A DNA stretch of 64,000 nucleotides from an uncultured Planctomycetia bacterium (GTDB lineage: Bacteria; Omnitrophota; Gorgyraeia; 2-02-FULL-51-18), in contig CAZSGP010000002.1 of NCBI GenBank assembly GCA_964606485.1, positions 138,766 through 202,765 of the forward strand, in the 5' to 3' direction. The position numbers were made by a program, and so were the translations under genes. This document shows, piece by piece, positions 38,824 to 56,197 of this stretch (position 1 is the stretch's first letter; each line of letters starts with the position of its first letter). The notes under the pieces were generated by a model that was not told the DNA's origin, searched no databases, and saw only the letters and a list, made by a program, of their open reading frames with translations.

Positions 38824-38852
38824 TTGTTCCGACCCTTTAACATAAAATTTAC

Positions 38853-38925
38853 GGGTCCTGCCGGCGGTTGTCCGTTCAGAACCACCTACGGTGGCTTCCG
38901 AGACGGACGCCTACCGCCGTCACCC
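38853..38925 (+). repeat. 75-nt palindromic repeat element, copy 1 (supplies the last 3 codons and TGA stop of ybeY)
   Basis: gggtcctgccggcggttgtccg...cggacgcctaccgccgtcaccc, flanked by the complementary extension aaaatttacggg/cccgtaaatttt. The central hairpin variant is gaaccacc-tac-ggtggcttc. Confidence 0.85.
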
Positions 38926-39339
38926 GTAAATTTTAGATAATATAAGTTCTTGCCGACTAAACATTTTCTTTTTGTCCGCCGGCTTCTGATCATCATACCC
39001 TAAAAGGTGAAGCGTGCCATGAATCAAATAACGCGCAAGCTCCTCTTTGAATGAAATCTTGAGTTCTTTCGAAAACGATTTGGCCATGTCCACCGAGACA
39101 ACCAAGTCACCCAGATAATCCGACTCTGGCCCAGGGCCAGCGCCGAACGAAATGACGTCGGTGGCATAATCGTGTTTCAGGAATTTTTTGTTGATCTGTC
39201 GAATCTTGCGGTTGTCCGTCAAAAGGACGCTCACCGAGCAGCGCTTCGATTTTTCAGTTTTTAATGTGTGGTGAACAACGCTTGAAACCCAGGACTGTGT
39301 GACGCTTGGCAACTTTTTAGAAAAGCGGACTTCTATCAA
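38920..39339 (-). CDS. ybeY: endoribonuclease YbeY (rRNA maturation factor)
   Basis: 139 aa with the HGTLHLLGYDD zinc-binding motif. The final IYG and the stop codon are encoded within repeat copy 1. Confidence 0.88.
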   Translation of the reverse strand: MIEVRFSKKLPSVTQSWVSSVVHHTLKTEKSKRCSVSVLLTDNRKIRQINKKFLKHDYATDVISFGAGPGPESDYLGDLVVSVDMAKSFSKELKISFKEELARYLIHGTLHLLGYDDQKPADKKKMFSRQELILSKIYG

Positions 39340-41072
39340 CGAAGTTTAATTCCAACTTCTTTTAGTTGGCGCTCTGAGGCCTGAGACGGCGCCTCGGTCA
39401 TCGGGCAAACGGCTTTTTGATTTTTGGGAAACGCAATCACTTCGCGGATGGAGTCAAGCCCCAGGAGAATCGTGAGAACGCGGTCAATGCCGAGGGCGGC
39501 TCCTCCGTGCGGAGGCGCACCAAACTGAAATGCTTTCAAAAGAAACCCGAATCTTTTTTGAATTTCTTCAGGCGCCAAGCCAATTGCTTCAAAAATTTCT
39601 TTCTGCATAGCTTCCGAGTGAATACGGATTGAGCCGGACGCAATTTCATTCCCATTCAAAACCAAGTCATAAGCGCGAGAACGGACCGGCTCGTGATTGC
39701 CATCGGACTTAAACTTCTTCCAGTCTTCCACATTCGGCGACGTGAAGGGATGGTGCTCGCTCGCCCATCGCTTTTCTTCAGCGTCGTAGGCAAATAATGG
39801 GAAATCAATCACCCAGCTAAAATGAAATTCATCGGCCTTCATTAATTTTTTAGTCTTCCCTAAATGTAAGCGCAGGGCACCTAAAATTTTTAACGACTTA
39901 TGACGGTCGCCCGCAGCAAAGAAAATCATGTCACCGGCATTAGCTCCGGAGACTTTTTTAATTTCGGCTAGCATCTCTGGTTTAAAAAATTTGGCAATCG
40001 GTGCTTCGAGTCCCGCTTCGGTGACTTTGAAATACGCCAATCCCCCAGCTCCTTCAGCTTTCACAAATTCAGTGAGCGCATCAATTTCGCTACGGGGAAT
40101 GGCAGCGCCACCCGACAAAACAATTGCAAACACGCCGCTCTTTGGAGCTGAAACCGCTTCATTGAAAATTTTAAACTCGCAACCCTTAACCGCCGAAGAG
40201 AGCTCTTTAATTTCCATGCCGAAACGCAGGTCCGGTTTGTCCGAGCCGTATTTGGCCATGGCGTCTTGATAAGTCAGTTGAACAAATGGCGTTTTTAAGT
40301 CGCGGCCCATCACCTCTTTGAAAACATTCTTCATCACGTCTTCGACGACGACAAACAAATCTTTTTCATCGATGAAGGACATTTCGAGATCAAGCTGGGT
40401 GAATTCGGGCTGGCGATCAGCACGCAAATCCTCATCGCGGAAACATTTGGCAATTTGGAAATAACGGTCAAATCCGGACACCATGAGAATTTGCTTAAAA
40501 AGCTGCGGGGACTGCGGCAACGCGTAGAACTCCCCTTGGTTCACGCGGCTCGGAACCAAATAGTCGCGCGCGCCTTCCGGAGTTGACTTTGTGAGAATCG
40601 GTGTCTCGACTTCAATAAAATTGTGCTTATCAAGACTCTGACGCATGACTTGATAAATTTTGTGACGCGCGAATAAATTTTTCTGCACCGACGGATTGCG
40701 CAAATCAAGGTAACGGTACGTCATGCGCAGTTCTTCGTTGGTCTCCTGGCTTTTGGTCACTTCAAACGGAAGCGCTTGGCAGGAATTTAAAAGTTCGACG
40801 GTTGCTTTTGTAATTTCAATTTGGCCAGTGGGAAGCTTTGAGTTTTCGGTGCCTTGAGGACGGCGCTCAACGGTGCCAGTTACGCGGACAACTTCTTCGG
40901 ATTTAAACTGCGCGCCCTGCCCTGCGACGACTTGCGTTTTTCCGTAACGGTCACGCACGTCAATAAACGTAACACCACCATGATCGCGCACGGTGTCGAC
41001 CCAGCCGGAGAGTGTGACGTTTTGTCCGATATTTTTTTCGGTGAGTTCACCGCAAGTGTGAGTTCTTAGCAT
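39336..41072 (-). CDS. aspS: aspartate--tRNA ligase
   Basis: 578 aa with an N-terminal OB anticodon-binding domain and class-II motifs (FRDEDLRADRQPEFTQLD, GGAAIPR...GLDR). Confidence 0.93.
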   Translation of the reverse strand: MLRTHTCGELTEKNIGQNVTLSGWVDTVRDHGGVTFIDVRDRYGKTQVVAGQGAQFKSEEVVRVTGTVERRPQGTENSKLPTGQIEITKATVELLNSCQALPFEVTKSQETNEELRMTYRYLDLRNPSVQKNLFARHKIYQVMRQSLDKHNFIEVETPILTKSTPEGARDYLVPSRVNQGEFYALPQSPQLFKQILMVSGFDRYFQIAKCFRDEDLRADRQPEFTQLDLEMSFIDEKDLFVVVEDVMKNVFKEVMGRDLKTPFVQLTYQDAMAKYGSDKPDLRFGMEIKELSSAVKGCEFKIFNEAVSAPKSGVFAIVLSGGAAIPRSEIDALTEFVKAEGAGGLAYFKVTEAGLEAPIAKFFKPEMLAEIKKVSGANAGDMIFFAAGDRHKSLKILGALRLHLGKTKKLMKADEFHFSWVIDFPLFAYDAEEKRWASEHHPFTSPNVEDWKKFKSDGNHEPVRSRAYDLVLNGNEIASGSIRIHSEAMQKEIFEAIGLAPEEIQKRFGFLLKAFQFGAPPHGGAALGIDRVLTILLGLDSIREVIAFPKNQKAVCPMTEAPSQASERQLKEVGIKLR

Positions 41073-41096
41073 AATATTCTCTAACCGAAATTGAAC

Positions 41097-41169
41097 GGGT
41101 CCTGCCGGCGGTTGTCCGTTCGAAAGCCACCTTCGGTGTTTTCGAGACGGACGCCTACCGCCGTCACCC
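41097..41169 (+). repeat. 75-nt palindromic repeat element, copy 2 (supplies the last codons and TGA stop of hisS)
   Basis: The same core as copy 1, with the different complementary flank gaaattgaacggg/cccgttcaatttc. The central hairpin is gccacc-UUCG-gtg. Confidence 0.85.
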
Positions 41170-42423
41170 GTTCAATTTTCGAATAATCTCCGTTACCTCA
41201 GTAAACTTAAGCTCTTGTTGACTGCCGTCGTTCAAATCTTTTAAAACAGCGACGCCTTTTTCAATTTCGTTGTCGCCCAAAATAATCATGTACCGACTTC
41301 CGGACTTGTCGGCTGAGCGCATTTGGCTTTTCAGCGACTTGCCGTCCAAATCCATAAAGGCCGCTATTTTATGCGACCGGAGCTCTCCAAGCAACCCAAA
41401 AGCGACTTGAAATGCTTTCTCCCCCAAAGCTGCAAGGAACACGCTGTTTTTTCGGACGGGTGCTGCGTCGTTTTGTTTTTCGAGACACATTTGAAGACGT
41501 TCAACGCCTACTGCAAAACCGACCGCCCCCAATTTTGGCCCACCGAAGGATTCGATTAAATTATCGTAGCGACCGCCTGCTCCCAGCGCGTCTTGAGCGC
41601 CAAGCTTTGGGTGAGTAACTTCAAAAACCGTCAGCGTGTAATAATCAAGACCTCTCACCATAAAATCATCTTGAATGTAGGAAATTTTGAGTGCGTCGAG
41701 CGCTCGGCAAACTTTTTCGTAATGGGCTGTGCTCTCCGCGGTTAGGAATTTTTTTAGCGGCGGCGATTGGCGTGCGATTTTCCGGCACGTTTCAACTTTG
41801 CAATCTAAAAGACGAAATACATTTTTTTCCATGCGGCGTTTGCAGTCCTCGCACAATTCTTTGGCGTGAGGCTTAAAAAATTCAAGAAGCTCTCCCCTAA
41901 AAATTTTTCGCTCGTCGAAAGTTCCGAGATTATTCAGTTTTACTTTGTAGCCATGCGCACCAACAGCGTCTAAAAAAGTGGTGAGTGCGTGAATGGCTTC
42001 GGCGTCGGCGTAAGGGCTATTTGTCCCAAGCTCCTCAACTCCGATCTGATGAAACTGTCTTAAGCGACCCGCTTGGGGACGTTCGCTTCGAAACATCGGA
42101 CCCATGTAATAAAACTTTTCGAGACCATTTTTTTTGTCGAGTTCATTTTCGAGATACGCGCGGACCACACCCGCTGTTCCTTCAGGACGAAGCGCTACAC
42201 GCGTACCAGAGCGATCTTCAAATTCATACATTTCTTTTTGGACAATGTCGGTCTCGGTTCCGATCGCGCGGCAAAAAACATCTTTCTCTTCCATGATGGG
42301 CGTGCGGAGTTCTTGAAATCCAAATTTGGAAAATGTTTCGCGCGCTTTGGATTCGATAAAAGAAAAATCCAGTGCGTCTTGGGAAAAAATATCGTGCGTG
42401 CCGCGAAGGCGTTGAAAATTCAC
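41164..42423 (-). CDS. hisS: histidine--tRNA ligase
   Basis: 419 aa with class-II motifs and a HisRS anticodon-binding C-terminus. The final NG and the stop codon lie within repeat copy 2. Confidence 0.9.
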   Translation of the reverse strand: MNFQRLRGTHDIFSQDALDFSFIESKARETFSKFGFQELRTPIMEEKDVFCRAIGTETDIVQKEMYEFEDRSGTRVALRPEGTAGVVRAYLENELDKKNGLEKFYYMGPMFRSERPQAGRLRQFHQIGVEELGTNSPYADAEAIHALTTFLDAVGAHGYKVKLNNLGTFDERKIFRGELLEFFKPHAKELCEDCKRRMEKNVFRLLDCKVETCRKIARQSPPLKKFLTAESTAHYEKVCRALDALKISYIQDDFMVRGLDYYTLTVFEVTHPKLGAQDALGAGGRYDNLIESFGGPKLGAVGFAVGVERLQMCLEKQNDAAPVRKNSVFLAALGEKAFQVAFGLLGELRSHKIAAFMDLDGKSLKSQMRSADKSGSRYMIILGDNEIEKGVAVLKDLNDGSQQELKFTEVTEIIRKLNG

Positions 42424-42452
42424 GGGAGAAATGGGCGCGGTAAACCGCGCCC

Positions 42453-42731
42453 CTACTTAACGTCTTTCTTCATAATGAGGCCGGGTTTAAAAACCACGAC
42501 CTTTTTTGGGGGAACCGGAACTTCCTGGCCGGTGCGAGGGTTGCGCCCGAGTCTGCCGCGACGGGATTTAATTTTAAAAATCCCGAAATTGCGCAATTCG
42601 ACGGTCTGACCTTGAGCCAAATACTCGGTGATTTTATCAAGCGACGACTGAACAACACGCTTCACGTCAATCTGCTTGATGCCGGTTTCGTTCGAAACTT
42701 TGATAACAATATCTTTTTTAGTGATGGCCAT
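42453..42731 (-). CDS. HU/IHF-family DNA-binding protein
   Basis: 92 aa; the ...RNFGIFKIKSRRGRLGRNPRTGQEVPVPPKKVVVFKPG beta-arm is typical of HU/IHF. Confidence 0.85.
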   Translation of the reverse strand: MAITKKDIVIKVSNETGIKQIDVKRVVQSSLDKITEYLAQGQTVELRNFGIFKIKSRRGRLGRNPRTGQEVPVPPKKVVVFKPGLIMKKDVK

Positions 42732-42780
42732 GGGCTCCCCTCAATGTATGTATCAGCTTACCACACAAGAACTTACGGGG

Positions 42781-45700
42781 TCAAATTCTAAGACTAACCG
42801 CCTCGGATCCGACGAGCTCCTGGAGAGAGGTTACAAGCGTAGGGCTCGGTTTGACAAAAAGACTGCGGTCCACCAAGAGCTGGCTCTTTGCGTTATTTTT
42901 GTCTACAAACTCTAAGTACACCGGCACATTGCCGGGGTGCTGAGACAAAACGCCTTGCACGTTTTTGAGTGTATTTTCTTCAAGGCCTGACGCAACGAGC
43001 CGCACATGCACACTGCGCGTAAATTTTTTATGAACATCAGCAACTGGGGTGATCTCACTCACCAAGAGTTTTGGGTCCTGCTCTTTTTTATCGACATTGC
43101 CGCGAAAAAATAAAATAGCATCTTTAACCAGATGATGACCGAACTCTTTAAAGGTTTTAGGGAAAACCAAAAGATCGATGGTTCCTTCCAAATCTTCGAG
43201 ACCAACGATAGCCATTTTCTCACCGGCTTTTTTAGTGACAGTAAACTTAAGTTTGCTGACGAGTCCCCCAATCACCACTTCTTCTTGATCATTGCGTTTT
43301 CCGATAGTCGCGGTCGATACCGACGAATAGCTCTTAAGCTCGACCCCGAAACGCTTGAGCGGATGACCTGTGACATAAAACCCGAGCATCTCTTTTTCGA
43401 AGAGTAATTTTTCAGCGTCTTGCCATTCGGGGATATCCGGAATCCTTTGGAATTTGCTTTTATCTTCAAAAGAATCGAATAAAGATTTCTGTCCGGTCTC
43501 ACGGTCTTTCTGGATTTCACCGCCCATGGAAAGCGCTTGGTCCATCGCGCCAAAAAGCCGCGAACGAAAAATTCCCATGGTGTCAAAAGCGCCGCACTTG
43601 ATTAAACTTTCAAGCACTTTGCGGTTCACGACACGCAAGTCCACATTTTCAGTCAGATCAAAAAAAGATTTAAAACTTTTTTTCCGGATGCGCCCTTGAA
43701 TAATGGCGTCAATAGCCGTCTGCCCCACGTTTTTAACGGCGGCCAGTCCAAAGCGAATAGTCTCCTGGTCAATCACAGTGAATTGCGGAAAACTTTGATT
43801 TACATCCGGGGGCAACACCTTCAGCCCCATGCGCTTAGCTTCATCAATGTAGAGCACCACTTTGTCAGTGTTGTCTTTTTCCGAAGTAAGCAAAGCTGTC
43901 ATAAATTCCACCGAGTAATTGGCTTTCAAATACGCCGTGCGGAACGAAATGACGGCGTACGCGGCCGAGTGACTCTTGTTGAAACCGTATCCGGCAAAGT
44001 GCATGATCAAATTAAAAATTTTCTCGGCGACCTTTTTGTCGACTTTATTTTTGACGCAGCCCTCAACAAAATCATTTTTGGCTTCTTGAATAATTTCTTC
44101 TTTCTTCTTTGAAATGGCGCGGCGCAAACTATCGGCTTTGGCAAGCGAGAAACCGGCGAGGCTACTCACGATTTTCATAATCTGCTCTTGGAACACGATG
44201 ATGCCGTACGTATCTTTTAAGATGGGTTCCAAAAGTGGGTGATCGTAAACAATGGGGACCTGGCCGTGTTTGCGCTTAATAAAATCATCGACCATGCCCG
44301 AACCGATCGGACCCGGGCGATACAGCGCCAAGATAGCGATCAAATCTTCGAATTTATCCGGGCGCAGTTTCTTTAAAATGTCGCGCATGCCCGAACTTTC
44401 AAGCTGAAACACGCCCACGGACTGAGCTTTCACGAGCCATTCAAACGTTTTCACGTCATCCATCGGAATCTGGGACCAGTCGATTTCTTTTTTCTGCGTG
44501 CGCTTAATAATTTTGATGGTGTCTTCGATTACGGTGAGCGTGCGAAGTCCCAAGAAATCCATCTTAAGAAGCCCGATTTTTTCAAGCGACTCCATGGCAA
44601 ACATCGTGGAAATCTGACCGTCCCCCGTCTTGAAAAGCGGGACGTGTTCTTTTAAGGGGCGTTGGCTAATCACCACGCCGGCCGCGTGCGTCGACGCATG
44701 GCGCGTGGTTCCCTCTAAAATACGCGAGGTATCGATCAGCTCTTTGACTTGAGGATTCGTTTTGTAAAGATTTTTGAGCTCGGGCTCGCGCTCGAGCGCC
44801 ATATCGATCGTGATTTCAAGTTCGGTCGGAATCAGCTTCGCAATTTTATCCACTTCGTTATAAGGCATACTCATCACGCGACCCACATCACGGATAACGG
44901 CCTTGGCCATCATGGTTCCGAAGGTGATGATCTGAGCGACGTTGTCCTTGGAATATTTGTCGGTCACGTATTGAATAACGTTGTCGCGGTTTTCGTAGCA
45001 AAAATCGATATCGATATCCGGCATGGTGACGCGGTCAGGGTTTAAGAAGCGCTCGAACAGCAAATCGTATTTGAGCGGGTCGATGTCGGTGATGCCGAGC
45101 GCATAACTCACCACACTGCCCGCCGCCGAACCGCGGCCCGGACCCACCGGAATGCCGTTGCTCTTCGCAAAATTCACAAAATCCCAAACGACAAGGAAAT
45201 AACTCACGTATCCGCTTTTACGGATCACCGCAAGCTCATGCTTCACACGCTCTTTGATGGCGTCCGTGATCGGAATATACCGCTTTTCAAGCCCAGCCTG
45301 AACGAGCTCATCCAAATACCCATCTTGAGTTTTTCCAGGAGGCGGCGTGTACTCGGGCACGTAGGTTTTTGAAAAATCGAGTTTTAAATTGCACATCTCC
45401 GAAATTTTCACCGTGTTTTCGATGGCTTCCGGCACATCGCGAAACGCTTTTTCCATTTCCTCGGCGGTTTTGAAATAAAAATCGTCGCTTTGAAAGCGGG
45501 CACGGTTCGTGTCATCGAGCGTGGTTTGTGTTTGCAGACAAAGCACCACTTCGTGAGCGCGGGCAAATTCGCGCTTTAAATATTTCACGTCGTTGGTCGC
45601 GACCACGCCAATTCCAAGTTCTTTGCCCAGCGCAATCATATCGTCGTTGACGCGTTCTTGTTCGCGAATTCCATTGCGGATAATTTCTAAATAATAATTT

Positions 45701-46212
45701 TCTTTCCCGAAAATTTCTGTGTATTCTTTCGCGGCCGCGCGGCCGCGCTCGGGCTGACCGATGTTAAAGCAGTATGGAATTTCCCCTCTCAGATTTCCGG
45801 AGAGCGCGATGAGACCCTTCGAATGCTTCCGCAAACATTCCTTATCCACGCGCGGCTTATAATAAAAACCTTCAAGATAACCGATCGTGACAAGCTCGAT
45901 TAAATTCCGGTAGCCTTCCATATCTTTGCAAAGAAGAACCAGAGGATGGGACGCTCCGGGAAGTCCGTGTGTGGCGCGCTCAAAGCGGCTTTCAGGAGCG
46001 ACGTATACTTCGGCGCCGATAATGGGTTTAATCCCAGCTTTTTGGCAAGCGTTGTAAAACTCAATGGCGCCAAACATATTGCCGTTGTCGGTAATGGCAA
46101 GCGCCGGCATCTTCAGCGCTTTGGCCGTGTCGGCTAAATCGTCGACAAAGCACACGGCGTCTAAGAGGCTGTACTGAGAATGGACATGAAGGTGAACGAA
46201 TTTGGAACTCAT
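42781..46212 (-). CDS. dnaE: DNA polymerase III subunit alpha
   Basis: 1143 aa with an N-terminal PHP domain (HLHVHSQYSLLDA), a polymerase core and a C-terminal OB fold. Confidence 0.95.
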   Translation of the reverse strand: MSSKFVHLHVHSQYSLLDAVCFVDDLADTAKALKMPALAITDNGNMFGAIEFYNACQKAGIKPIIGAEVYVAPESRFERATHGLPGASHPLVLLCKDMEGYRNLIELVTIGYLEGFYYKPRVDKECLRKHSKGLIALSGNLRGEIPYCFNIGQPERGRAAAKEYTEIFGKENYYLEIIRNGIREQERVNDDMIALGKELGIGVVATNDVKYLKREFARAHEVVLCLQTQTTLDDTNRARFQSDDFYFKTAEEMEKAFRDVPEAIENTVKISEMCNLKLDFSKTYVPEYTPPPGKTQDGYLDELVQAGLEKRYIPITDAIKERVKHELAVIRKSGYVSYFLVVWDFVNFAKSNGIPVGPGRGSAAGSVVSYALGITDIDPLKYDLLFERFLNPDRVTMPDIDIDFCYENRDNVIQYVTDKYSKDNVAQIITFGTMMAKAVIRDVGRVMSMPYNEVDKIAKLIPTELEITIDMALEREPELKNLYKTNPQVKELIDTSRILEGTTRHASTHAAGVVISQRPLKEHVPLFKTGDGQISTMFAMESLEKIGLLKMDFLGLRTLTVIEDTIKIIKRTQKKEIDWSQIPMDDVKTFEWLVKAQSVGVFQLESSGMRDILKKLRPDKFEDLIAILALYRPGPIGSGMVDDFIKRKHGQVPIVYDHPLLEPILKDTYGIIVFQEQIMKIVSSLAGFSLAKADSLRRAISKKKEEIIQEAKNDFVEGCVKNKVDKKVAEKIFNLIMHFAGYGFNKSHSAAYAVISFRTAYLKANYSVEFMTALLTSEKDNTDKVVLYIDEAKRMGLKVLPPDVNQSFPQFTVIDQETIRFGLAAVKNVGQTAIDAIIQGRIRKKSFKSFFDLTENVDLRVVNRKVLESLIKCGAFDTMGIFRSRLFGAMDQALSMGGEIQKDRETGQKSLFDSFEDKSKFQRIPDIPEWQDAEKLLFEKEMLGFYVTGHPLKRFGVELKSYSSVSTATIGKRNDQEEVVIGGLVSKLKFTVTKKAGEKMAIVGLEDLEGTIDLLVFPKTFKEFGHHLVKDAILFFRGNVDKKEQDPKLLVSEITPVADVHKKFTRSVHVRLVASGLEENTLKNVQGVLSQHPGNVPVYLEFVDKNNAKSQLLVDRSLFVKPSPTLVTSLQELVGSEAVSLRI

Positions 46213-46261
46213 AACTGAAACCGGATTATAACAAAAAATGGACGAGTCGAGCGAACAAGCT

Positions 46262-49200
46262 TTAAGCGGCCTGGCGAATCAGGCGGTCGGCGAGTCTCGC
46301 GGCAGAAAAAGCCTGATTGAGCGTGAGTTTGGCGAGTGCCGGAATCGCTGAGAGCTCCGGATTGTCGAGATCGCTAGCATTTTGAATCTCGTGGCCCGTA
46401 AGCCGCCTCATCAATGAAAAAATATCTGCGAAGTTTTGATCATCCATCTTACGCATCCGCGCGCGTTTTAGACCGATTCGAATTTGCGCTCTAAAATTAG
46501 GGATGTCCCCTTCTTCTAAAGTTTTATGATAAGCAGGAATCGTTTTTGGATCCAACACTCCGCCCGGCGTGGTCAAAAGTGCGGCAGGAATATCGCCAAG
46601 ATCTGTTCCGTCCTCTACCAAATTATCCAGAAGAGACGGTTCCATAGCCTCGATTCTTTTTTTCACTTTTTCGATAAGCTGCGTATCCGTACTTCTTAAA
46701 ATAAATTTTGCATCCTTCTTTGCTAAACTCATTTCGCGGATCAAGATGGGCAGAATGATCTCATCAAACCCTTTAAGCGTCGGCCCAAATTGGTCCAGAT
46801 CCACGATGCCAGCCGCCTCCCCTTGTCCTTGCTTAAGATCTGCCAACGCCAAATTATTTTGCTCGTAAAGCATTTTGAAATCGGCCATGGGCATTTGAAT
46901 TTGAACCCGTTCAGCCTGAGCAGAGCCGGTTATTTTTTTCCAATTCACCTTTTGACTGCCATTGAGCGTCAGGGTTGCGTCGCCGTTGTCGACGTAATCC
47001 AACTCCAGAGCGCCCAACACCAGCTTGGCTGATTTTTCTTCGGTGGCCTGGCGGACACATGCCACGAAAATAACGGTCTCTTCCGGCAAAATCTTTCGCC
47101 CTACTTGTTCTTTGGCCAGCCGCGCGGCTGCGCTTTGCCTGTGTTCCTTTAAATAATGATGGAGCAAAAGTTTGGCCCTATGAAAAATATACGACTGACC
47201 CCGGAACTCGGAACGCTTACGAATCAAGACCTGTTTATTGTTGAGCTTGTTTTTAAAGCTTCGAAGAATTGCTAATTTAACACCGCCATTAGCAAATCCT
47301 TCGCGAATGATTTTTAAATCCGGCTCGAGACTTTGACGCACCGGTTCCGGTAGCGTGCGCACCACGGCGGCCAAGTATTTTATGTGCTCGCTCATACTCG
47401 CGAGCGTAAAATCAGACTCTATAAATACGCCTGAAAATTTTTCAATGACTCTTGAAAAATCCCGCTCAAGCATCTGGTCGATCTCTGCATCTTGCGCTTT
47501 TGAAAGCTCGGCATCCAGCGCTCGCAAAAGTGCCGCTTTCTCGATCTTGTCGTTTAAGAATTTCCCGATCACCTCGCGGCTAAAATAATCCCGCGCCTCC
47601 GGCTGAAGCCGGGTCCACTCCTCGGCAATTTTTAACCGCCAAGCACGCCGGACCTGCTCTCCCTGTACAACTCCCTTAAATGAGATGCCCGCCAAATTCC
47701 GCTTTGGAATAAAAGCCGCGGCGAGACCCGGTAAACGTAAAATGACCGCGTAATCGATCCAGAACTGTTTAAGGCGTTGGGGAATTTGAGTAACGGAACT
47801 GCCGTCAGAATCAGCAAGCCGCGCGCCGCTCTGAGACTCCTTGTCCGACTCGCTCCAAATATCAGAAATTTTTTTAAAAGCAGCCGGAATCCTGTGAATT
47901 GCAGTATCGGCCATAAAATAAATCACAAAACCCAGCCCATAGGCTGTCAGGAGGCTTTGGTAGGCTTGTAATTTAAATACGAAACTTAGTTGATGGAGGT
48001 CAGAGAGGGCCCAAGTGATATTTCCCAAAAAAAGCCAATAAATCGCAAGTCCTTGGGCAAACAGTGCAATCCAGGGCCTTTGATTCCAAATACCGGTCCG
48101 TAGTAGACCGATCGGAATCGCAACCCCCATAGAAAAGGGCAAGATCCCGCACAAAAAAACAGAAAATCGTGGCAAGTGGTGGCCAAAAACCGGCAGAGTG
48201 TATCCCGACGCAGCTCCGGGCGGATCGACATGGGCTACAACGCCCGGTACCCAAAGAACCGCTTGATTCAAAATTCCTGCAAAGGCGGTCGCTTCGGGGT
48301 TAAATCCGACGGCGGAGATCCCGCCCATTAAAAAAACGGGGATGTGGTGAAAAAGCTCGTGGCAAAAAAATGAAATCGCATTGAGCGGAAGGTAGTAACC
48401 AAAGTACGGGTCAAAAACAAAACTAAATCCGACGACAAAAAAAATCAGCTTCCGCCACTGCCAATCATTTTCGGCATTCAATGCTTTTTTCACAATTAAG
48501 GCGTGTAGAGGCAACATCGCAGCGGCATTCGCTAGATATTCGTAAGCGAGCCTCGCGCCCTGAGCGCGTTGTCCGGACCGAAGCGCGAACAACTCTTCCG
48601 CGGAAACTTCCACCACCGTCTGGTTATTAAAACGAGTATCGAGCAACGAGCAAATGCTGTCCCAACTTAGAAGAATATCAGGGTAATCCGTCCGATCGGG
48701 TCTTTGATAGCGAATGCCTACGCTCTCTGACGTCGCAACGATCATCGCTTTCTGCGCCGAACTTTTCATCGGCCGCTCAATCATCAGCTTGCGCGCATTT
48801 TTAGACTTGAGAGCCGCTTCGAGCTTCGGCATAATTCCAACAATGATCGCTCTTGTGTCTGCACGGAAACTACTGACTAAAATTTTTGGGGTTGTTGCTG
48901 GCAAACTGTCGATCGCTTCAATAATTTCCCGCGCTTTAGCCGCAGAATAGTCGTCCAACACCGGTGCTTTGTTGGGAAGTAAATGCTGGTGCAAAACCGC
49001 GCCTTGAGGCGCGCGGCCCTTCTCTAGGGAAACAGCAACAATGCCCTGACAATTGAACAATCCACCTGTCGCGAGCATCGTGTGGCTATTCAATTCGCCC
49101 GAAATCATCGCGGACTTTTCAGGAGAACCGAATTCCGCATTCAAAATCTTGAAACCCTGCCCACGGTAAACATCAGTCGCCACTCTCATGAACGGTGCCT

Positions 49201-52200
49201 CCTCCCGAAACCGTTGATAGGCGTTTAAGGCGAGCCGCGCGCCAATTTTTGATGCTGCTTTGCGACGATAATAGCGGAATCGTTCAGCACGTTTTCGGGC
49301 GTGCCCAATAGCCGACCGCCGCTCAGACAAAGGATTGTAATCGCGGCGCATGTCGGCCATCTTGGATAAAATTCGGGCACTGTGCTTCCAAGAGATGAAT
49401 GTTATTTCCACCCCCATGGCGCGCGCGAATCTTCGAAATTGAATTCTCTCGTTCCTACTACCAATTGGACGGCGCGCCGCCCTCCAAGCCCGCCATGAAT
49501 TCCAGACCATGTCGGAATCAATGGGGCCAACTTTTCCGGCGATCAATCGCCCATCCACCGACCGGATGAAAGTGACTCCAAGCGGCGAAATATGAAAATT
49601 TTGAGTGCCCATATTCACGAAATTAGCGATATCGTGCTCGGAGGGCATTTTGAGCCAATTCACGTTGTATCCCGGGCCCATATTGTGTGTGTGAAAATCA
49701 ATTATAATCCGGCCTTGTTTAGCGAGCTCATTCAATTCACCGGTCAGCTCAACGTTCGTTTTATCTCCCGTGACGAGTAACCATTCGCCGCTGTCGAGAT
49801 AGATGATTTCCACTTCGAAATCAAGATGTAGCATCCAACGCATGTCCGACAAGTTTGGCATGTAACGAATTTGGAATACCCGCTGGCGGCCCGGCCGCAC
49901 TAGTCGCAACGCTTCCCGCAATTTCGCCATCGTTAAAATGGGATAACTGCCTTTTTTAGTAGCTTGTTTTTGCCAAATAGCAACGCTCGAGGAAAGCCGC
50001 GCGCCAAATTTCTCATCGGCCAATCGACGCGCCTCTTTTCGCCGCTCGCGCGTTAAAATACTTCCTCTTTTTGAAATCCAAAAACGGATCACCGAAAATA
50101 AACGGGCCGAGTAGCGGTTCGCCGGACCCACGTAAACGCGATAGGCTAATTTCCGAATAAATTGCCCCGCCGTCATGTCCACCGCGATGTCGCCGCTGGG
50201 AGTTTGAAGAACTGCATAATCATGAACCGGACGATCCTGAATATAAATTCTTTCAATTCTTGAGGGGATATTTAATTCATACAGCGCATCCAGTAACAGT
50301 GCCGTCACCACCTGGCAGAAGCCGCCATCGGGTGCTCCATAAAAAAGAAGGGTCGCGTAACGATCTCTATCCCCTTCTTTCAAAGTTAATCGAAGTTCGC
50401 TGTTGTAGAGCGCCCCAATAAATTTTTTGAGTGCCGGGCCGTGAAGATTCATCGCCTTTCGGACCGATTCCAAGCTAATTTCCTCACTTCTTAATGAAGC
50501 GAACGCAAGAACGATCGACTCTTTGAATAAATCATGCATCAGTCGGTCTGCGTCCAACATGCTTTCGTGTTGTGCGTCACGGTCTGAGGACAATCTAGAA
50601 CCTTCGGAGAGCCGCGCGCCTCCCATTAGGCCTTCCAATAGAGCTACCTTCGTTTTTCCATCATCATAAAGGCGCTTGATGAGCTGGTGTTTTTTGGTAG
50701 TTCGGGCATTGATTTCAGCGATGGTTTCGGGTAAAGCGCCGGGCGCATCTGCCGCCGTCAGTAGCAGCGGCGAGTCGATTCTTTCAAGCTTCGCGCTCCA
50801 AGATTCAGAGGATGCTCTAATTCTATTTAACATCTCCAGATAACGTTCAGCAGCTTGGCGAACACGAACTTTATCTGTTCGGCCATCTTTCGCCAAACGA
50901 ATCAACAAATCCGCAAAAGATAAAAATCTTGCCACACTTTCTGAACTCACCCCAAGATCAGGGTCGATCACCGCGGGTGACGATAGATAAGCTAAATACC
51001 CTTCGGCATCTTCCAGGTCATCCTCATCGAAAAGAGGCGCGGATTCGAAATAGATCCTCATAGCCCGTAGAAGCAAGTAATGACGCCTGAGAATCGTCGC
51101 CTCTTCATCTTCTCCAAATCGCGAAATATCGAGATCAACTGACGCGGCATCGTAACCGAATCTTGCGCTCATTTGATCCAGACTCGGGGCAAGATCGGAC
51201 TGGTTTAAATTTAAAAAAATCCTCTTCACGGTATTAATTCCGGTGGACGAGGAAGCATCTCCCAGCTCACCCCGCTGATATAGATGGAACCAGCGATCAG
51301 CCGAATCATGTGTCAGCGACAACCCTTTTTGGGCCTGAGAAAGAACATCTTCTGGTCTAAGCGCGTCAACCTCACGAAAAACCTTTTCTTTTAAAGGATG
51401 ATCGACCGTAAGAAACGTTTGAATATCCGCGTTCCCGCCAAGATGCCTTAAGATCAGATTGCCCATCCACGGATCGGACAAAAGCGAGCTTTTGACGGCC
51501 AACCGCGCGCCCGACCCGTCTTTTGAAGTATCACCTCTCTCGATGCCTTTTTCACGATCCATAAATTTACTGTCTTTTATAAATTTTTCTACAACGCCAA
51601 ACGTCATTAAAACCGAGGAAAGATCTAAAATAATATCAACGACTATACGGCGAATTTGTCTAGCGCTTCTGGGACGAATCTTCCGAATGCGATCGACGTG
51701 CCCTTCAAACCTAAATATCATTCGGTGCCACAACCGTCTAAAGTCATCAAACATGGCGTACGCAAAACCGCAGGTGGGTCCGGCAAGATAAATAAGCAGA
51801 CACCCCCCAACCCCAAAAATTAGAAAGTCCAGAGAAGCGCCGGATGAGAGGCGCGCGCCGTCTTCACGTACCACCCACTTACTCGGAGCAACGGTGAGAT
51901 CAGCAACAAAATCGACATCGGCTGCCGATTTTTGCGCATACAGCTCCCAAGCTTGGTTCTTTAACTCGATCAACCTTCGGCGAAACTCGATAAACGCGTC
52001 ATCTCCTTTATAGAGCTGCCGAGAACGCTCGACAAATCTCTCCGTGGTTGCGCGCGAATCGCTTTTCAAGCGAACGTGAAGATGAGGTATCGCATCCCGT
52101 TCAAAATTCAATAAATGCGCGCACGTCCAATCCACTAGAAGGACATCGCCTTTTTTAAAGGTAAATTCTTTTGGGCCCATTTTGCGCTCGTTGCGATGAT

Positions 52201-55200
52201 AGGCGTTGGGGACCATAATGCGGGTTTCTTGGGATACGTCTTGATTCAGGAAATGACTGCGCAGCTTGTCAAAAAATCGACTCACCTCTTCAACCTGGTA
52301 AGTGTCTTCGTACTCCGTAGTAAACGGCTTTCCGGCACTCACTATTTTTTTAAAAATAGCTGCTTTTTTTTCGGGATCAATCAGGAATAGGTCTATATCG
52401 AGAGGCTCGTTTGGAGTCGAAACGCCGATCAGTCTGAGAGCGGGCGCGAGAGCGCGTGTTAGCGTCGTTTTTCCGCCGCCCGAAAGACCATCAAAAAATA
52501 CAATACCGCCGGACGGCAAATGTTTTTTGATTTGCCCTGCAAGTTGCTCCGCCAATCTTTTATAAGCTTCAACTTCTTCCGGCGAAATTTGAGCGGACCT
52601 GCCTCGCTCTGCGGCCAGCCGCATATTAAGCTCTGACGAATAAGCGATCTTGCCGTCAGCGGCCAATCTCGACGCCGCCTTTAGCGCTTGATTCAGATAA
52701 GCGATGGCGCGCTTTTGATCGTCCTTTTTAAGCGCATGCAGTCCCAAGATGTGGGATACGGCAAATAAATTTCTTTGTGGGAAAAGCTCCTGAATCAAAA
52801 TCGCCACATCGAAATAGTCATCGGTGCGAATCGAGTTGTCGTCCTTGAGCAGAGAAAAAATAACCGCTAAATCTTCAAGCGCCACATTCCCCGTTTTTTC
52901 TTTGGCGTCGGCTGAGCCGCCGATTCCGCCAATTGAGCCGTCAAAATGCGTCATTCCCTCTTCGAGAGCGACGAGAACATTCACGAGGCCCAAACCGTGA
53001 TCGTGCAAATGCCACCCGAATTCCAAACCTTCAAACGGCCCGCCCTTTTTATTTCTTTTCAAGACAAACCGTGAAAATTTCCGAATATCCTCAGGCTTTG
53101 CCCTTCCGGAAGTATCGCTCAGCCAAATTTTTGTGACCCCATTGTCCCGGAGCGCCCTGATATTGGCGGCCAGCATTTTAAAAGTAACCTTCTCTTTGCT
53201 GTAAGAGGGAATCGCCGAAATATAACCGTGCTTTTCGATCGAATGCCCAGTTTCCCGTTCATAGCCGGCAATCTCGTTCAGCATGGGGACCACTTTCGCC
53301 GTAAAATCCTCCAGCGGGCTCTTGTCGATTCTGGCTGCCCGCTCCATTTTTTTTGCCATTTTTTCCTTCAGCTTAGCTTTCTCGTCAGCGCCAGTCTCGA
53401 TAGCAATGCTTTTTTCTAATTCTTTAATATAGCGCTCGGAAACTTGTTGATTGTCTTTTAGATACTCCTTCGAGGCCGACGTCCACACCGCGATCGCTTG
53501 AGGTCGAGCGTCGCTCTCACGCAATTTGCTCCAGGATTCTTGATTGAACAGCAAATGGCGCACCGTCGGCACTTCGTGATCTTTGCGATATTCGGCTAGC
53601 CATCTGGCAAATTCAGGAGAATCTGCCATCGATGCATAGACCCCGAACGAAGTCGCTTCGAGCGGAAGACCAAGCTTAAACAAAAGCTTCGCGAGTTTTT
53701 TCTTAGATTCGGTGGTTAGAATCGGCTTCAGGCTTTGAATGCCGTCCCGCAGGGTGTCGTCGCTGATGTAAATTTTATTTATGTTCAGGATTTTTTTAAC
53801 TTTTTCTAAATCCACTCCGGAAGCGTTGAGTTTCGAAATAAATTCGTCAATCCGCGCTTTGATATCATCAAACTCTACGGTCTCCGCTAGCCTCGTAGCT
53901 TGAATTTTTAGCTCTTCTGCGGAAATTTCAACCACCGTCTGGTTATTAAAACGAGTATCGAGCAGCGAGCGAATGCTGTCCCAACTGAGAAGAATATCAG
54001 GGTAATCCGTTCGATCAGGTTTTTGAGTGCGGATACCCACACTCTCCGACGTCGCAACGATCATCGCTTTCTGCGCAGAACTTTTCATCGGTCGCTCAAT
54101 CATCAACATGCGCGCGTTTTTAGACTTGAGGGCCGCTTCGAGCTTCGGCATCATGCCAACAATAAGCGCTCGTGTATCTGCGCGAAAACTGCTGATTAGA
54201 ATTTTTGGGGCGGGACTAGGCAAGCTGTCAGCGGCCTCTATGATTTCTTGCGCTTTGATCGCCAAATAGTCGTCCGATGCTGGAGCTTTACTGGGAAGTA
54301 AATGCTGGTGTAAAACCGTTCCCTGAGTCGCGCGGCCCTTCTCCAGCGAAACAGCTACAGCTCCCTGACAATTGAACAATCCGCCTGTCGCAAGCATCGT
54401 CCGGTCATTCAACTCCCCGGAAATCATCGCAGACTTTTCAGGAGAGCCAAATTCCGCGTTCAATATTTTGAAACCCTGGTCACGGTAAACATTAGTCTCC
54501 GCTCTCATAAACGGTGCTTTCTCCCGAAACCGTTGATAAGCATTTAAGGCGAGGCGGGCGCCATCTCCACCTTTTTGTTGACCACTCACCACCTCCGGAG
54601 TGGAAATGGGTAGTTTCTCGAAATCATTTCGAAGAAGCCCAACTGTATCGCGCCCCATCAACCCTGCGTCCATCACGGACACGGTCTGAAGCATGCTCGC
54701 CGGAACGCTTAAAAACTTTGGAGTGGAATTCGACCCCAAAAGAATCTGCTCGTACCGCTTTTGATTGGTTTCGTGCAGGACCTGAGGGCGAAGTGAAATG
54801 TAGGAAATATTTTTAGAACGCAGAATCGACTTGAGATTGGCGGTGTGATAGCCGCCTGTGATCAAAACTGATAACAGCGGGTCCTGCCGGCGGTTGTCCG
54901 TTCGAAAGCCACCTTCGGTGTTTTCGAGACGGACGCCTACCGCCGTCACCCGCTGCTGCTCAGCTTGATTCAGCATATTCTCAATAAATTTTTCATCGCG
55001 CTTAAGTGTTAGTGTGTAAAACGCTTCCGCGCTTGTAACGATTTCGTCGAAACCCGGCTCAAGGAAGGCGGCGTGTTCATAAAATTGCTTCTGTTCCATG
55101 ATTTTTAAGTTCAGAAATCCGGTCAGCGGCTTGATGCTGTCGCCTGCTTTTTTGAATTCAGCGTATTCTTCAGGCGTTAGCTGAAAGTTAAACAGCTTTC

Positions 55201-56197
55201 GGTAAAAATAAAGCGTTCGGACAGAACGAAGCAAGTTTTGCTCATCCGGCGTTTGAGCCAAACTTTGAAAGACTTCATTTTCCATAGCCTTCTGCTCGGT
55301 CATTAAGTCTGAATAATTCAACGCCTTCGACGAACGAATGATTCTTTCGAGGATTGTCTTCTGATGCTTCGGGGAAACCTTGAGACGATCCAGCTTCTTC
55401 TCGAGTGCTTTTAGTTTTTGGAGGCGTTTGAAATTCGGATAACGACCCTTGATGGGCTGACTCATCAGAATATCCGCGTAAACCACGAAGGAGGTTTCGC
55501 CTTTACGGTATTTCTCGTAAGAGTTTTCAAAGGATAAAAGGACAGGGTTTAGAATCCGGGGTTTCAGCACTTCAATCGTATTCTGAATTTTATCGAGATA
55601 ACTTTCAAAGCGTCCGCGCTCACTAGCCACACCGCGATACAGTTCTAGCGCTTGCCGGTATAAATCTTTGTCCTCTACGCCCCATAACTGAAAGTCGTGG
55701 TCAGATATAAGGTCTAAATATTCTTCGCCGTGAATCAGCCCCTTTTGAAGATAACTTCTGGCAATATTTTTTCTTTGCTCGGTGCTTCCGTATTGACGCA
55801 AGAAGGAAAGCGAGTCGTTTCCGAAGCCGCCTTCGACGAAAACCTGGATCTTATCGTCATTCCTGCGCAAGCGGGAATCTAATCGCTCTGATCCCCGCCT
55901 ACGCGGGGATGACTGGATATTTTTCGCCAAAATTAGATCAAGCGACTTCGCAAGATTGAGCTGTCCTGAAGGATTGGTGTGCGCATCCTGTAAGAGGATG
56001 ACGATCTGCGGACCACCATGCCACGCATCTTCCACAGTTGCCATCGAAGAAGGAATTGAAGGTAAAACGCTTTCAGCCCATTTCGCGCTTTGAAATTGCT
56101 GGAATTTCAGGAAGTCAAAACTTTTGGAATCAGGGTTCGCAAAACTTAAATCCTGCAGAAAAAAAGTAAAAACGAGCCCCAAGGAAATGGCTTTCAT
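46262..56197 (-). CDS. giant (3311 aa) multidomain membrane-associated protein of unknown function
   Basis: An uninterrupted 9,936-nt ORF. It has a signal-peptide-like N-terminus, a duplicated ~220-aa domain, a DRE-TIM/HMGL-like domain (DTLRDGIQS, DTSGRAKPEDI, HLHDHGLG...DGSIGGIGG), a P-loop motif (GLSGGGKTT), TM helices near aa ~1470 and ~1530, a TM bundle at aa ~2540-2760 with HELFHH, an in-frame 75-nt repeat insertion, and a recurrent GARL(A/S) motif. Confidence 0.75.
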   Translation of the reverse strand: MKAISLGLVFTFFLQDLSFANPDSKSFDFLKFQQFQSAKWAESVLPSIPSSMATVEDAWHGGPQIVILLQDAHTNPSGQLNLAKSLDLILAKNIQSSPRRRGSERLDSRLRRNDDKIQVFVEGGFGNDSLSFLRQYGSTEQRKNIARSYLQKGLIHGEEYLDLISDHDFQLWGVEDKDLYRQALELYRGVASERGRFESYLDKIQNTIEVLKPRILNPVLLSFENSYEKYRKGETSFVVYADILMSQPIKGRYPNFKRLQKLKALEKKLDRLKVSPKHQKTILERIIRSSKALNYSDLMTEQKAMENEVFQSLAQTPDEQNLLRSVRTLYFYRKLFNFQLTPEEYAEFKKAGDSIKPLTGFLNLKIMEQKQFYEHAAFLEPGFDEIVTSAEAFYTLTLKRDEKFIENMLNQAEQQRVTAVGVRLENTEGGFRTDNRRQDPLLSVLITGGYHTANLKSILRSKNISYISLRPQVLHETNQKRYEQILLGSNSTPKFLSVPASMLQTVSVMDAGLMGRDTVGLLRNDFEKLPISTPEVVSGQQKGGDGARLALNAYQRFREKAPFMRAETNVYRDQGFKILNAEFGSPEKSAMISGELNDRTMLATGGLFNCQGAVAVSLEKGRATQGTVLHQHLLPSKAPASDDYLAIKAQEIIEAADSLPSPAPKILISSFRADTRALIVGMMPKLEAALKSKNARMLMIERPMKSSAQKAMIVATSESVGIRTQKPDRTDYPDILLSWDSIRSLLDTRFNNQTVVEISAEELKIQATRLAETVEFDDIKARIDEFISKLNASGVDLEKVKKILNINKIYISDDTLRDGIQSLKPILTTESKKKLAKLLFKLGLPLEATSFGVYASMADSPEFARWLAEYRKDHEVPTVRHLLFNQESWSKLRESDARPQAIAVWTSASKEYLKDNQQVSERYIKELEKSIAIETGADEKAKLKEKMAKKMERAARIDKSPLEDFTAKVVPMLNEIAGYERETGHSIEKHGYISAIPSYSKEKVTFKMLAANIRALRDNGVTKIWLSDTSGRAKPEDIRKFSRFVLKRNKKGGPFEGLEFGWHLHDHGLGLVNVLVALEEGMTHFDGSIGGIGGSADAKEKTGNVALEDLAVIFSLLKDDNSIRTDDYFDVAILIQELFPQRNLFAVSHILGLHALKKDDQKRAIAYLNQALKAASRLAADGKIAYSSELNMRLAAERGRSAQISPEEVEAYKRLAEQLAGQIKKHLPSGGIVFFDGLSGGGKTTLTRALAPALRLIGVSTPNEPLDIDLFLIDPEKKAAIFKKIVSAGKPFTTEYEDTYQVEEVSRFFDKLRSHFLNQDVSQETRIMVPNAYHRNERKMGPKEFTFKKGDVLLVDWTCAHLLNFERDAIPHLHVRLKSDSRATTERFVERSRQLYKGDDAFIEFRRRLIELKNQAWELYAQKSAADVDFVADLTVAPSKWVVREDGARLSSGASLDFLIFGVGGCLLIYLAGPTCGFAYAMFDDFRRLWHRMIFRFEGHVDRIRKIRPRSARQIRRIVVDIILDLSSVLMTFGVVEKFIKDSKFMDREKGIERGDTSKDGSGARLAVKSSLLSDPWMGNLILRHLGGNADIQTFLTVDHPLKEKVFREVDALRPEDVLSQAQKGLSLTHDSADRWFHLYQRGELGDASSSTGINTVKRIFLNLNQSDLAPSLDQMSARFGYDAASVDLDISRFGEDEEATILRRHYLLLRAMRIYFESAPLFDEDDLEDAEGYLAYLSSPAVIDPDLGVSSESVARFLSFADLLIRLAKDGRTDKVRVRQAAERYLEMLNRIRASSESWSAKLERIDSPLLLTAADAPGALPETIAEINARTTKKHQLIKRLYDDGKTKVALLEGLMGGARLSEGSRLSSDRDAQHESMLDADRLMHDLFKESIVLAFASLRSEEISLESVRKAMNLHGPALKKFIGALYNSELRLTLKEGDRDRYATLLFYGAPDGGFCQVVTALLLDALYELNIPSRIERIYIQDRPVHDYAVLQTPSGDIAVDMTAGQFIRKLAYRVYVGPANRYSARLFSVIRFWISKRGSILTRERRKEARRLADEKFGARLSSSVAIWQKQATKKGSYPILTMAKLREALRLVRPGRQRVFQIRYMPNLSDMRWMLHLDFEVEIIYLDSGEWLLVTGDKTNVELTGELNELAKQGRIIIDFHTHNMGPGYNVNWLKMPSEHDIANFVNMGTQNFHISPLGVTFIRSVDGRLIAGKVGPIDSDMVWNSWRAWRAARRPIGSRNERIQFRRFARAMGVEITFISWKHSARILSKMADMRRDYNPLSERRSAIGHARKRAERFRYYRRKAASKIGARLALNAYQRFREEAPFMRVATDVYRGQGFKILNAEFGSPEKSAMISGELNSHTMLATGGLFNCQGIVAVSLEKGRAPQGAVLHQHLLPNKAPVLDDYSAAKAREIIEAIDSLPATTPKILVSSFRADTRAIIVGIMPKLEAALKSKNARKLMIERPMKSSAQKAMIVATSESVGIRYQRPDRTDYPDILLSWDSICSLLDTRFNNQTVVEVSAEELFALRSGQRAQGARLAYEYLANAAAMLPLHALIVKKALNAENDWQWRKLIFFVVGFSFVFDPYFGYYLPLNAISFFCHELFHHIPVFLMGGISAVGFNPEATAFAGILNQAVLWVPGVVAHVDPPGAASGYTLPVFGHHLPRFSVFLCGILPFSMGVAIPIGLLRTGIWNQRPWIALFAQGLAIYWLFLGNITWALSDLHQLSFVFKLQAYQSLLTAYGLGFVIYFMADTAIHRIPAAFKKISDIWSESDKESQSGARLADSDGSSVTQIPQRLKQFWIDYAVILRLPGLAAAFIPKRNLAGISFKGVVQGEQVRRAWRLKIAEEWTRLQPEARDYFSREVIGKFLNDKIEKAALLRALDAELSKAQDAEIDQMLERDFSRVIEKFSGVFIESDFTLASMSEHIKYLAAVVRTLPEPVRQSLEPDLKIIREGFANGGVKLAILRSFKNKLNNKQVLIRKRSEFRGQSYIFHRAKLLLHHYLKEHRQSAAARLAKEQVGRKILPEETVIFVACVRQATEEKSAKLVLGALELDYVDNGDATLTLNGSQKVNWKKITGSAQAERVQIQMPMADFKMLYEQNNLALADLKQGQGEAAGIVDLDQFGPTLKGFDEIILPILIREMSLAKKDAKFILRSTDTQLIEKVKKRIEAMEPSLLDNLVEDGTDLGDIPAALLTTPGGVLDPKTIPAYHKTLEEGDIPNFRAQIRIGLKRARMRKMDDQNFADIFSLMRRLTGHEIQNASDLDNPELSAIPALAKLTLNQAFSAARLADRLIRQAA
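48612..49245 (-). repeat. intragenic duplication, unit B (~640 bp) within the giant ORF
   Basis: Paralogous to 53925..54565. Encodes the second copy of the ~220-aa domain, immediately N-terminal of the HExxH transmembrane domain. Confidence 0.85.
53925..54565 (-). repeat. intragenic duplication, unit A (~640 bp) within the giant ORF
   Basis: About 88-90% nucleotide identity to 48612..49245. Encodes GARLALNAYQRF...MLATGGLFNCQG...VVEISAEEL. Confidence 0.85.
54879..54951 (+). repeat. 75-nt palindromic repeat element, copy 3 (in-frame insertion inside the giant ORF)
   Basis: The same core, with the complementary flank cagcggg/cccgctg. In the host frame it reads RVTAVGVRLENTEGGFRTDNRRQDP. Confidence 0.85.

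Follow-up and report, generated by a model that had tools for sequence, protein, structure and literature searches.

An orphan hydrophobic cassette with an HExxH motif in a modular giant protein from Omnitrophota

The 64,000-nucleotide stretch of Omnitrophota DNA analysed in this work (referred to as the window) encodes on its minus strand a giant protein of 3311 residues (46262-56197), which consists of a head, about 12 cassettes delimited by short junction motifs, and a tail. The only HExxH motif of this protein is found in one of these cassettes (aa 2552-2795, 244 residues; 47813-48544), a sequence-orphan polytopic hydrophobic module that ends with GARLA and is very probably a self-contained piece of cargo within the modular giant. 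A first-pass annotation of the segment 47917-48577 of the minus strand (aa 2541-2761) had described there at least six hydrophobic helices, one of them with a membrane-embedded HELFHH, and had likened the module to site-2 protease (S2P), i.e. peptidase family M50, and to related zinc metalloproteases. The HELFHH string is indeed present (aa 2613-2618), and we regard the observation as real but modest: the family assignment fails, and a protease-like function is possible. A lone HExxH in a single protein of an uncultured bacterium does not suffice to call the cassette a protease. Its value lies in what its borders point to, a family of giant proteins built of protein-sized cassettes with a five-residue separator and with a conserved hydrolase-like head placed first; among the cassettes of this family are complete PEPCK, aldolase, PFK, adenylate kinase and CsrA as well as an S2P and the HExxH membrane module. 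This junction-motif architecture is more striking than the HExxH cassette itself and deserves follow-up.

The cassette and its borders

The features described below are all encoded on the minus strand and are given in window coordinates. Directly upstream of the HExxH cassette lies copy 2 of a duplicated cassette (aa 2324-2551, 48545-49228), which ends with the upstream GARLA junction (aa 2547-2551, 48545-48559), in agreement with the placement given in the first-pass annotation; the downstream GARLA junction (aa 2791-2795, 47813-47827) closes the HExxH cassette itself. The first copy of the duplicated cassette is located at aa 551-771 (53885-54547). The two copies are 83% identical at the protein level and a 300-nucleotide stretch of them is 89% identical at the nucleotide level, and both borders of this intragenic duplication coincide with junction motifs. 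The duplication of this cassette is recent. The duplicated cassette has no match in Pfam or PDB; by eye, its motif TGGLFNCQGxVAV...VLHQHLLP seems similar to the site with Cys and His in deamidases of the CheD type.

The sequence of this region does not result from an assembly chimera, since a contig of an independent assembly (Logan contig L001, SRR12487046) is 100% identical to positions 41143-48641 of the window, the HExxH cassette included; this contig being identical, there is no sequence variation to analyse. The reading frame of the cassette is intact inside the ORF (open reading frame) of 9.9 kb, and its composition agrees with that of the rest of the gene (GC content 0.481 vs 0.485; GC content of third codon positions, GC3, 0.492 vs 0.509). 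An assembly artefact or a frameshift is ruled out by the identical Logan contig, the gene-like composition and the lack of a competing ORF.

Within the cassette, HELFH occupies aa 2613-2617 (48347-48361) and is followed by H2618 and by G2625 and G2626 at +12 and +13 from the first His. The string LNAISFFCHELFHHIPVFLMGG is present in the giant protein, and in the local context (FFCHELFHHIPVFLMGG) the HExxH is preceded by bulky hydrophobic residues and has a Gly at +12.

Junction motif and architecture of the family

A whole-protein search yielded 118 relatives, which together with the window protein form a family of 119 members. The relatives are 1.8-5.7 thousand residues long, and those with a named source are labelled Omnitrophota or Omnitrophica, except for P0045 (Eisenbacteria) and P0108 (Elusimicrobia). 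The N-terminal part of the window protein (aa 1-545) is common to all 118 relatives and its C-terminal part (aa 3030-3311) to about ten of them; for the middle of the protein, between the head and the tail, nothing in common with the 118 relatives was found. The plan of the family is a conserved head of about 545 residues, followed by cassettes that each end with [GA][AS]R[LM][AS], and a conserved C-terminal tail. GARL[AS] occurs 425 times in the 119 members, as compared to 2.6 occurrences expected, and GARLA, with 354 copies, is the most over-represented pentamer of the family. AARLA, GSRLA and GARMA represent lineage variants of the junction, the median spacing from motif to motif is 274 residues, and across the 119 members the residues that flank the motif exhibit no conservation.

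In the window protein, 12 junctions can be counted if the weak variants ATRLA and ASRLA are included (aa 546, 767, 1175, 1447, 1563, 1860/1866, 2065, 2319, 2547, 2791, 3024 and 3299; 46289-54562). They bracket every recognisable unit, among them an HMGL-like domain and a P-loop kinase-like unit. In three members of the family (P0001, P0035 and P0006) all 10 of the 10 Pfam domains are bracketed and never interrupted by the junctions. In P0035 and P0006, enzymes of central metabolism are present in full length, one to a cassette (PEPCK, class-I aldolase, PFK, adenylate kinase and FBPase, as well as PEPCK-ATP), and CsrA, a small RNA-binding regulator with a domain of 53 positions, likewise fills one cassette. 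To judge from these sequences, the architecture of the family looks like that of a polyprotein with putative cleavage, and we consider the junctions as candidate sites of polyprotein processing or of docking.

The last copy of the motif is located only 4-20 residues before the C-terminus in 27 of the 76 motif-rich members, most of which end in QAA, SAA, QSA or GSA; the window protein itself (aa 3299-3311, 46265-46303) ends with SAARLADRLIRQAA. Such proximity to the C-terminus would not be anticipated of a site used for cleavage alone, and it may point to a tag or degron at this end of the protein.

The junctions also exhibit a bias in codon usage. The Gly residue is encoded by GGC in all eight GAR[LM][AS] junctions of the window gene (P = 3e-4), the Arg residue is encoded by CGG in 8 of 20 junctions of P0030 against a background of 9%, and an over-use of GGC-GCG-CGG is found in three distantly related genes (the window gene, L002 10001-24682 and L003 213-10322). 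The codons of the junction Arg and Leu vary freely nonetheless, which mostly rules out that the junction is a repeat of the DNA alone, and the bias may reflect a minor constraint at the nucleotide level or a shared ancestry of the junctions. In the searchable literature, including the preprints on giant proteins of Omnitrophota, we found no description of the junction motif or of the head domain that accompanies it.

Predicted membrane topology of the cassette

In windows of 19 residues, the Kyte-Doolittle (KD) scale reveals seven hydrophobic peaks in the cassette, with values of 1.24-2.10. On a Hessa-type insertion scale with values taken from the literature, a clearly membrane-like character is limited to aa 2681-2699, 2709-2727 and 2749-2767, and two further segments are marginal. 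The cassette is best described as a predicted polytopic membrane domain in which three strong hydrophobic helices are accompanied by three or four weaker ones. The "at least six" helices of the first-pass annotation hold as hydrophobic peaks, but only three of them as clearly membrane-like segments; likewise, its HExxH does lie in a predicted helix of a hydrophobic module, but this helix is absent among the minima of the insertion scale. Both "at least six transmembrane helices" and "membrane-embedded HExxH" should be regarded as predictions, because few segments are membrane-like on the insertion scale and the helix with the HExxH is weak.

The core is predicted to comprise six transmembrane (TM) helices, TM1 to TM6. 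TM1 (aa 2584-2605, 48383-48448) is of marginal hydrophobicity and bears D2596 in its outer half; TM2 (aa 2608-2632, 48302-48376) carries HELFHH, also in the outer half; and TM3 (aa 2636-2657, 48227-48292), again marginal, contains AGILNQ and places H2656 at its outer end. TM4 (aa 2677-2699, 48101-48169) is the most hydrophobic (KD 2.10) and is devoid of Asp and Asn. TM5 (aa 2709-2730, 48008-48073), strongly hydrophobic, is followed on the outside by SDLHQ with D2733 and H2735, and TM6 (aa 2748-2766, 47900-47956), equally predicted as strongly hydrophobic, by the basic HRIPAAFKK on the cytoplasmic side. The core is preceded by an optional first segment, hydrophobic or amphipathic (TM0, aa 2555-2573, 48479-48535; KD 1.28), and whether this segment spans the membrane decides between a topology with six helices and the N-terminus inside and one with seven helices and the N-terminus outside. 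In both variants of this charge-based topology the orientation of helices 1-6 is the same: the loops of the six-helix core contain nine Lys and Arg residues inside versus one outside, and the HExxH is predicted at the outer face of the membrane, within the outer half of TM2.

Seven of the nine His residues, together with D2596, D2658 and D2733, are found on the predicted face of the HExxH, and D2596, H2656, D2658, H2673/H2674, D2733 and H2735, at the membrane level of the motif, could serve as third metal ligands. This clustering of His and Asp on one face is suggestive only. E2635, located 17 residues past H2617, is the only Glu at a gluzincin-like spacing; as placed by the charge-rule topology, it falls on the opposite face, in a predicted cytoplasmic NPE turn, in both models, and was rejected as the third ligand of a gluzincin.

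The giant protein contains a second, small membrane cassette (aa 1452-1567, 51497-51844), with a strongly basic loop (DDFRRLWHRMIFRFEGHVDRIRKIRPRSARQIRR) between its two hydrophobic helices. The positive-inside rule would place the flanks of that cassette outside the cytoplasm.

Searches for relatives

The HExxH cassette exhibits no match in Pfam even at E<=10 (hmmscan), and hence none to M50, M50B, M48, M56, CPBP or DUF3267, families that include those against which the first-pass annotation had proposed a profile search. Its sole match at E<=10 in NCBIfam is AciT (E 1.4), i.e. noise; in both searches the speed filters of HMMER may conceal very weak matches. At the same threshold there is no match among the PDB sequences. 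No relative was found in a word-indexed collection of 5.8 billion protein clusters or in the GTDB species genomes, an exhaustive phmmer search of 1.84 billion representative proteins returned only the cassette itself, and phmmer --max revealed no related cassette in the 118 relatives of the giant protein.

For comparison with M50 we used an alignment of seven rows (A2), composed of the M50 cassettes of the relatives and five stand-alone proteins with PF02163, in which HExxH, G...N (AGPIxN), N..P and G are the invariant columns. Alignment of the cassette to A2 with hhalign yields a probability of 2.3% over 36 columns, limited to the HExxH helix. As in M50, HELFH resides in a predicted TM helix, here a moderately hydrophobic one (aa 2608-2632).

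Possible functions of the cassette

Our preferred reading, which we put forward tentatively, is that the cassette represents a divergent membrane-embedded hydrolase of the zincin type, similar to S2P or HtpX in function without membership in their families; metal binding, catalysis and the insertion of helix 2 into the membrane are what we infer. In such a small metal-dependent enzyme, H2613 and H2617 would be the metal-binding residues and E2614 the general base; the site would be placed in the half of helix 2 that spans the outer leaflet, and the third ligand might be drawn from D2596, H2656, D2658, H2673/H2674, D2733 or H2735. In support of this reading, an HExxH arises in only 0.7% of the shuffles of the cassette and is in excess in the cargo of the family (28 observed vs 7.7 +/- 2.6 in shuffles, 3.6-fold, with 1-8 occurrences of the control motifs); seven of the nine His residues and D2596, D2658 and D2733 share its predicted face, and its Gly at +12 recurs in canonical M50. 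Metalloproteases are common among the cargo of the relatives: P0071 contains a junction-delimited M50 cassette (PF02163, aa 4676-5174) with HEVAH...AGPIMN...NMLPLGPLDG, P0050 an M50-like cassette between junctions (aa 3322-3509), and P0009, P0025 and P0110 carry Pfam M48 domains along with ABC1. Eleven other junction-delimited cassettes of the family have at least three hydrophobic helices; an HExxH is found in three of them, two of which are S2P-like (those of P0071 and P0050). An HExxH that is invisible to Pfam is normal in this family, because only 4 of the 28 copies found in the cargo belong to proteins in which Pfam recognises a peptidase domain (M48 in three cases, M50 in one). Further Pfam-dark HExxH sites adjoin hydrophobic helices in P0071 (aa 4042), P0101 (aa 976) and P0114 (aa 1712).

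Several observations weigh against this reading. The excess of HExxH in the cargo of the family includes homologous cassettes more than once. Extrapolation of the per-residue shuffle rate gives about 0.4 HExxH expected over all proteins of the 64-kb window, and the motif by itself is without significance once the multiple looks are counted. TM2, the helix with the HExxH, is missing from the minima of the insertion scale, is the lowest KD peak of the six core segments, and contains four polar residues and one proline. The clustering of His residues was noticed post hoc and is not significant on a fair null model (p ~0.07, a hand estimate that assumes His to be equally likely at either membrane interface). 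AlphaFold2 (AF2), run on the single sequence of the cassette, yields an all-helical, unreliable model with a predicted local distance difference test score (pLDDT) of 47, and a Foldseek search with this model, which is too poor to judge by, found nothing significant and no metalloprotease. The cassette has no homologues in which H2613, E2614 and H2617 might be seen to be conserved. The active sites of S2P, HtpX and BlaR1 face the cytoplasm, unlike the predicted outer-face site of the cassette. Neither profile nor sequence comparisons revealed a similarity to a peptidase family or to a known structure.

Likewise, the motifs that accompany the HExxH in M50 are absent. GPxxN or GxxxN is not found in the next core helix, where AGILNQ is one residue out of register, lacks Pro, and is left unaligned to A2 by hhalign. 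None of LDG (the second motif that the first-pass annotation had suggested to look for in a downstream helix), PxxxxDG or NxxPxxxxDG occurs in aa 2552-2795; NITWALSD, the nearest look-alike of the Asp motif, has the wrong spacing and neither Pro nor Gly. There is no third M50 motif at the expected place, because TM4 has no Asp or Asn. Given the lack of a profile match, the absence of the M50 motifs and the hhalign probability, membership in M50, M48, M56, CPBP/M79, M50B and DUF3267 was rejected, and with it the S2P/M50-type identity proposed initially. As far as the sequence can tell, the cassette is not a detectable protease of this type.

Alternatively, the cassette may serve as a membrane anchor or topogenic element that tethers or threads the giant protein or a processed fragment of it, with the HExxH having arisen by chance in a His-rich, fast-evolving sequence, and we treat this as the main, if doubtful, alternative. 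TM helices are near-universal in the long proteins of Omnitrophota (bioRxiv 10.64898/2026.06.07.730766), and the same giant protein contains, with aa 1452-1567, a two-helix membrane cassette that is clearly non-catalytic. The cassette has neither a homologue nor a protease signature; an HExxH arises in 7.4% of the shuffles of the whole protein, and about 7.7 of the 28 copies in the family are expected by chance. On the other hand, shuffling of the cassette itself generates an HExxH in merely 0.7% of cases, the concentration of His and Asp on one membrane face and the presence of membrane metalloproteases in the cargo of relatives argue for more than a tether, and a module of 244 residues with six or seven helices and nine His residues would be elaborate for a plain one. 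It is also possible, although in our opinion very unlikely, that the metal site is of another kind: HELFHH (HX3HH), GHH and the other His residues might form a His-box di-iron centre or a metal-transport site rather than a peptidase. HX3HH resembles the first His box of desaturases and hydroxylases of the FAD2/AlkB type, HE(C/L)GH(H/K), and the nine His residues in 248 positions, seven of them on one predicted face, would suit such a site. However, the lack of any Pfam match at E<=10 extends to FA_desaturase and FA_hydroxylase, boxes two and three of the canonical set (HxxHH) are missing, and the boxes of these enzymes face the cytoplasm, whereas here the outer side is predicted. A di-iron enzyme was judged unlikely on account of the missing Pfam match and boxes.

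We give equally little credence to the idea that the cassette is non-functional or decaying filler, or no membrane domain at all, i.e. young lineage-specific sequence between functional cassettes. Such an origin would agree with the lack of a relative among 1.84 billion representative proteins, with the marginal hydrophobicity of several helices, and with the failure of AF2 to provide a fold. However, the frame is intact in the 9.9-kb ORF, the GC and GC3 contents agree with those elsewhere in the gene, proper junction motifs are present at both ends, and the charges follow the positive-inside rule by nine to one; moreover, most of the cargo of the family is equally "dark".

Head domain and putative processing

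The head domain (aa 1-545, 54563-56197) defines the family. It has a signal-peptide-like N-terminus, a long helical insert, and a set of residues that are invariant in the alignment of the heads (A1), namely D71, H73, E122, E175, R400 and H451. Its similarity to the Tiki/TraB/ChaN/erythromycin-esterase superfamily is weak: PF04187 is matched by 4 of 16 heads with a best E-value of 0.0019, below the curated cut-off, and there is a match to DUF5694 with an E-value of 0.0014. The model of the head has an overall pLDDT of 78, with values above 90 in much of the core, whereas the linker that precedes the first GARLA (aa 490-550) remains below 35. Foldseek reports the erythromycin esterase EreC (6xcs_A) as the sole enzyme fold near the top, at rank 7 and with a non-significant E-value of 0.45, and a PDB profile search with the alignment of the heads returned coiled-coil noise only. 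We consider the head as a possible hydrolase that may read the junctions. Tiki1 reportedly cleaves Wnt3a at a Leu-Ala bond, and cleavage of R-L|A by a Tiki-like head would be in line with this.

The first 21 residues of the head (56135-56197) form a conserved, hydrophobic, signal-peptide-like segment that ends with FA-(A/N)-P (consensus ...FxxQxLxFAAP) and that resembles a Sec signal peptide by its sequence. If it is cleaved, the head and the first ~1430 residues, including the HMGL-like and P-loop kinase-like cassettes, would be located outside the cytoplasm.

It is tempting to speculate, although we find it rather unlikely, that the giant is a polyprotein cut at [GA][AS]R[LM]A by the head or by an enzyme acting in trans, and that the cut frees the 244-residue founder of an outer-face membrane zincin family, which would be putatively unrelated in sequence to M50 and M48. 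If cleavage does take place, the HExxH cassette would become a free small membrane protein and possibly a new type of membrane metalloprotease. The cassette itself was rejected as the enzyme that reads the GARLA junctions: it occurs in one protein only, and the junctions are spread across the family.

The giant gene is located next to housekeeping genes (dnaE, an HU-like gene, hisS and aspS; 38000-46212, minus strand), and the neighbours of the giant gene in the L002 locus include ribF, truB, rpsO and pnp. These two giant-gene loci share no conserved neighbour, and no dedicated partner gene was seen adjoining.

Comparison with known systems

Among the known systems, the cassette is reminiscent of S2P/M50 proteases (RseP, SpoIVFB, mjS2P; PF02163) in that an HExxH is placed in a hydrophobic helix of a small polytopic module and is followed by a Gly at +12 from its first His; all seven rows of A2 but that of P0050, i.e. 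the six canonical M50 ones, have this Gly as well. Its 244 residues are close to the size of the stand-alone mini-S2Ps (207-221 residues), and M50 modules do occur as junction-delimited cassettes in P0071 and P0050. On the other hand, it has no GPxxN, no NxxPxxxxDG and no acidic residue in TM4, hhalign gives 2.3% and hmmscan nothing, and its site is predicted on the outer rather than the cytoplasmic face. With HtpX/Ste24 (M48), BlaR1/MecR1 (M56) and the minigluzincin scaffold it shares the juxtamembrane position of the HExxH, and Pfam M48 domains are present in the members P0009, P0025 and P0110 of the family. In these families, however, the TM helices flank a soluble catalytic domain and a Glu further downstream serves as a ligand, whereas the loops of the cassette are very short, E2635 is on the opposite face of the membrane, and there is no Pfam match.

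At the level of the whole protein, the concatenation of full-length unrelated proteins with one short conserved motif between them, and the low-confidence linker before the first junction (aa 490-550, pLDDT <35), are similar to those of viral and engineered polyproteins. The differences are that cleavage is putative here, that the gene resides in a bacterial chromosome among the housekeeping genes dnaE, hisS and aspS, and that the motif is also found 4-20 residues from the C-terminus in 27 of 76 members, which is unexpected for a pure cleavage site. An analogy is also provided by the "multi-enzyme" giant membrane-associated proteins with TM helices described in Omnitrophota (West-Roberts et al., bioRxiv 10.1101/2023.11.21.568195; bioRxiv 10.64898/2026.06.07.730766), a phylum with TM helices or a signal peptide in 94% of its long proteins (bioRxiv 10.64898/2026.06.07.730766). 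The family described here shares with them the predominance of Omnitrophota labels, the many unrelated enzyme domains in one polypeptide, the signal-peptide-like N-terminus and the internal TM helices, but its members are smaller (1.8-5.7 thousand residues) and it is defined by the ChaN/Tiki-like head and by [GA][AS]R[LM][AS]. Both preprints ask whether the Omnitrophota giants are cleaved, and one of them calls the cleavage points unknown (bioRxiv 10.1101/2023.11.21.568195; bioRxiv 10.64898/2026.06.07.730766); for this question the junction motif supplies precise candidate cleavage sites.

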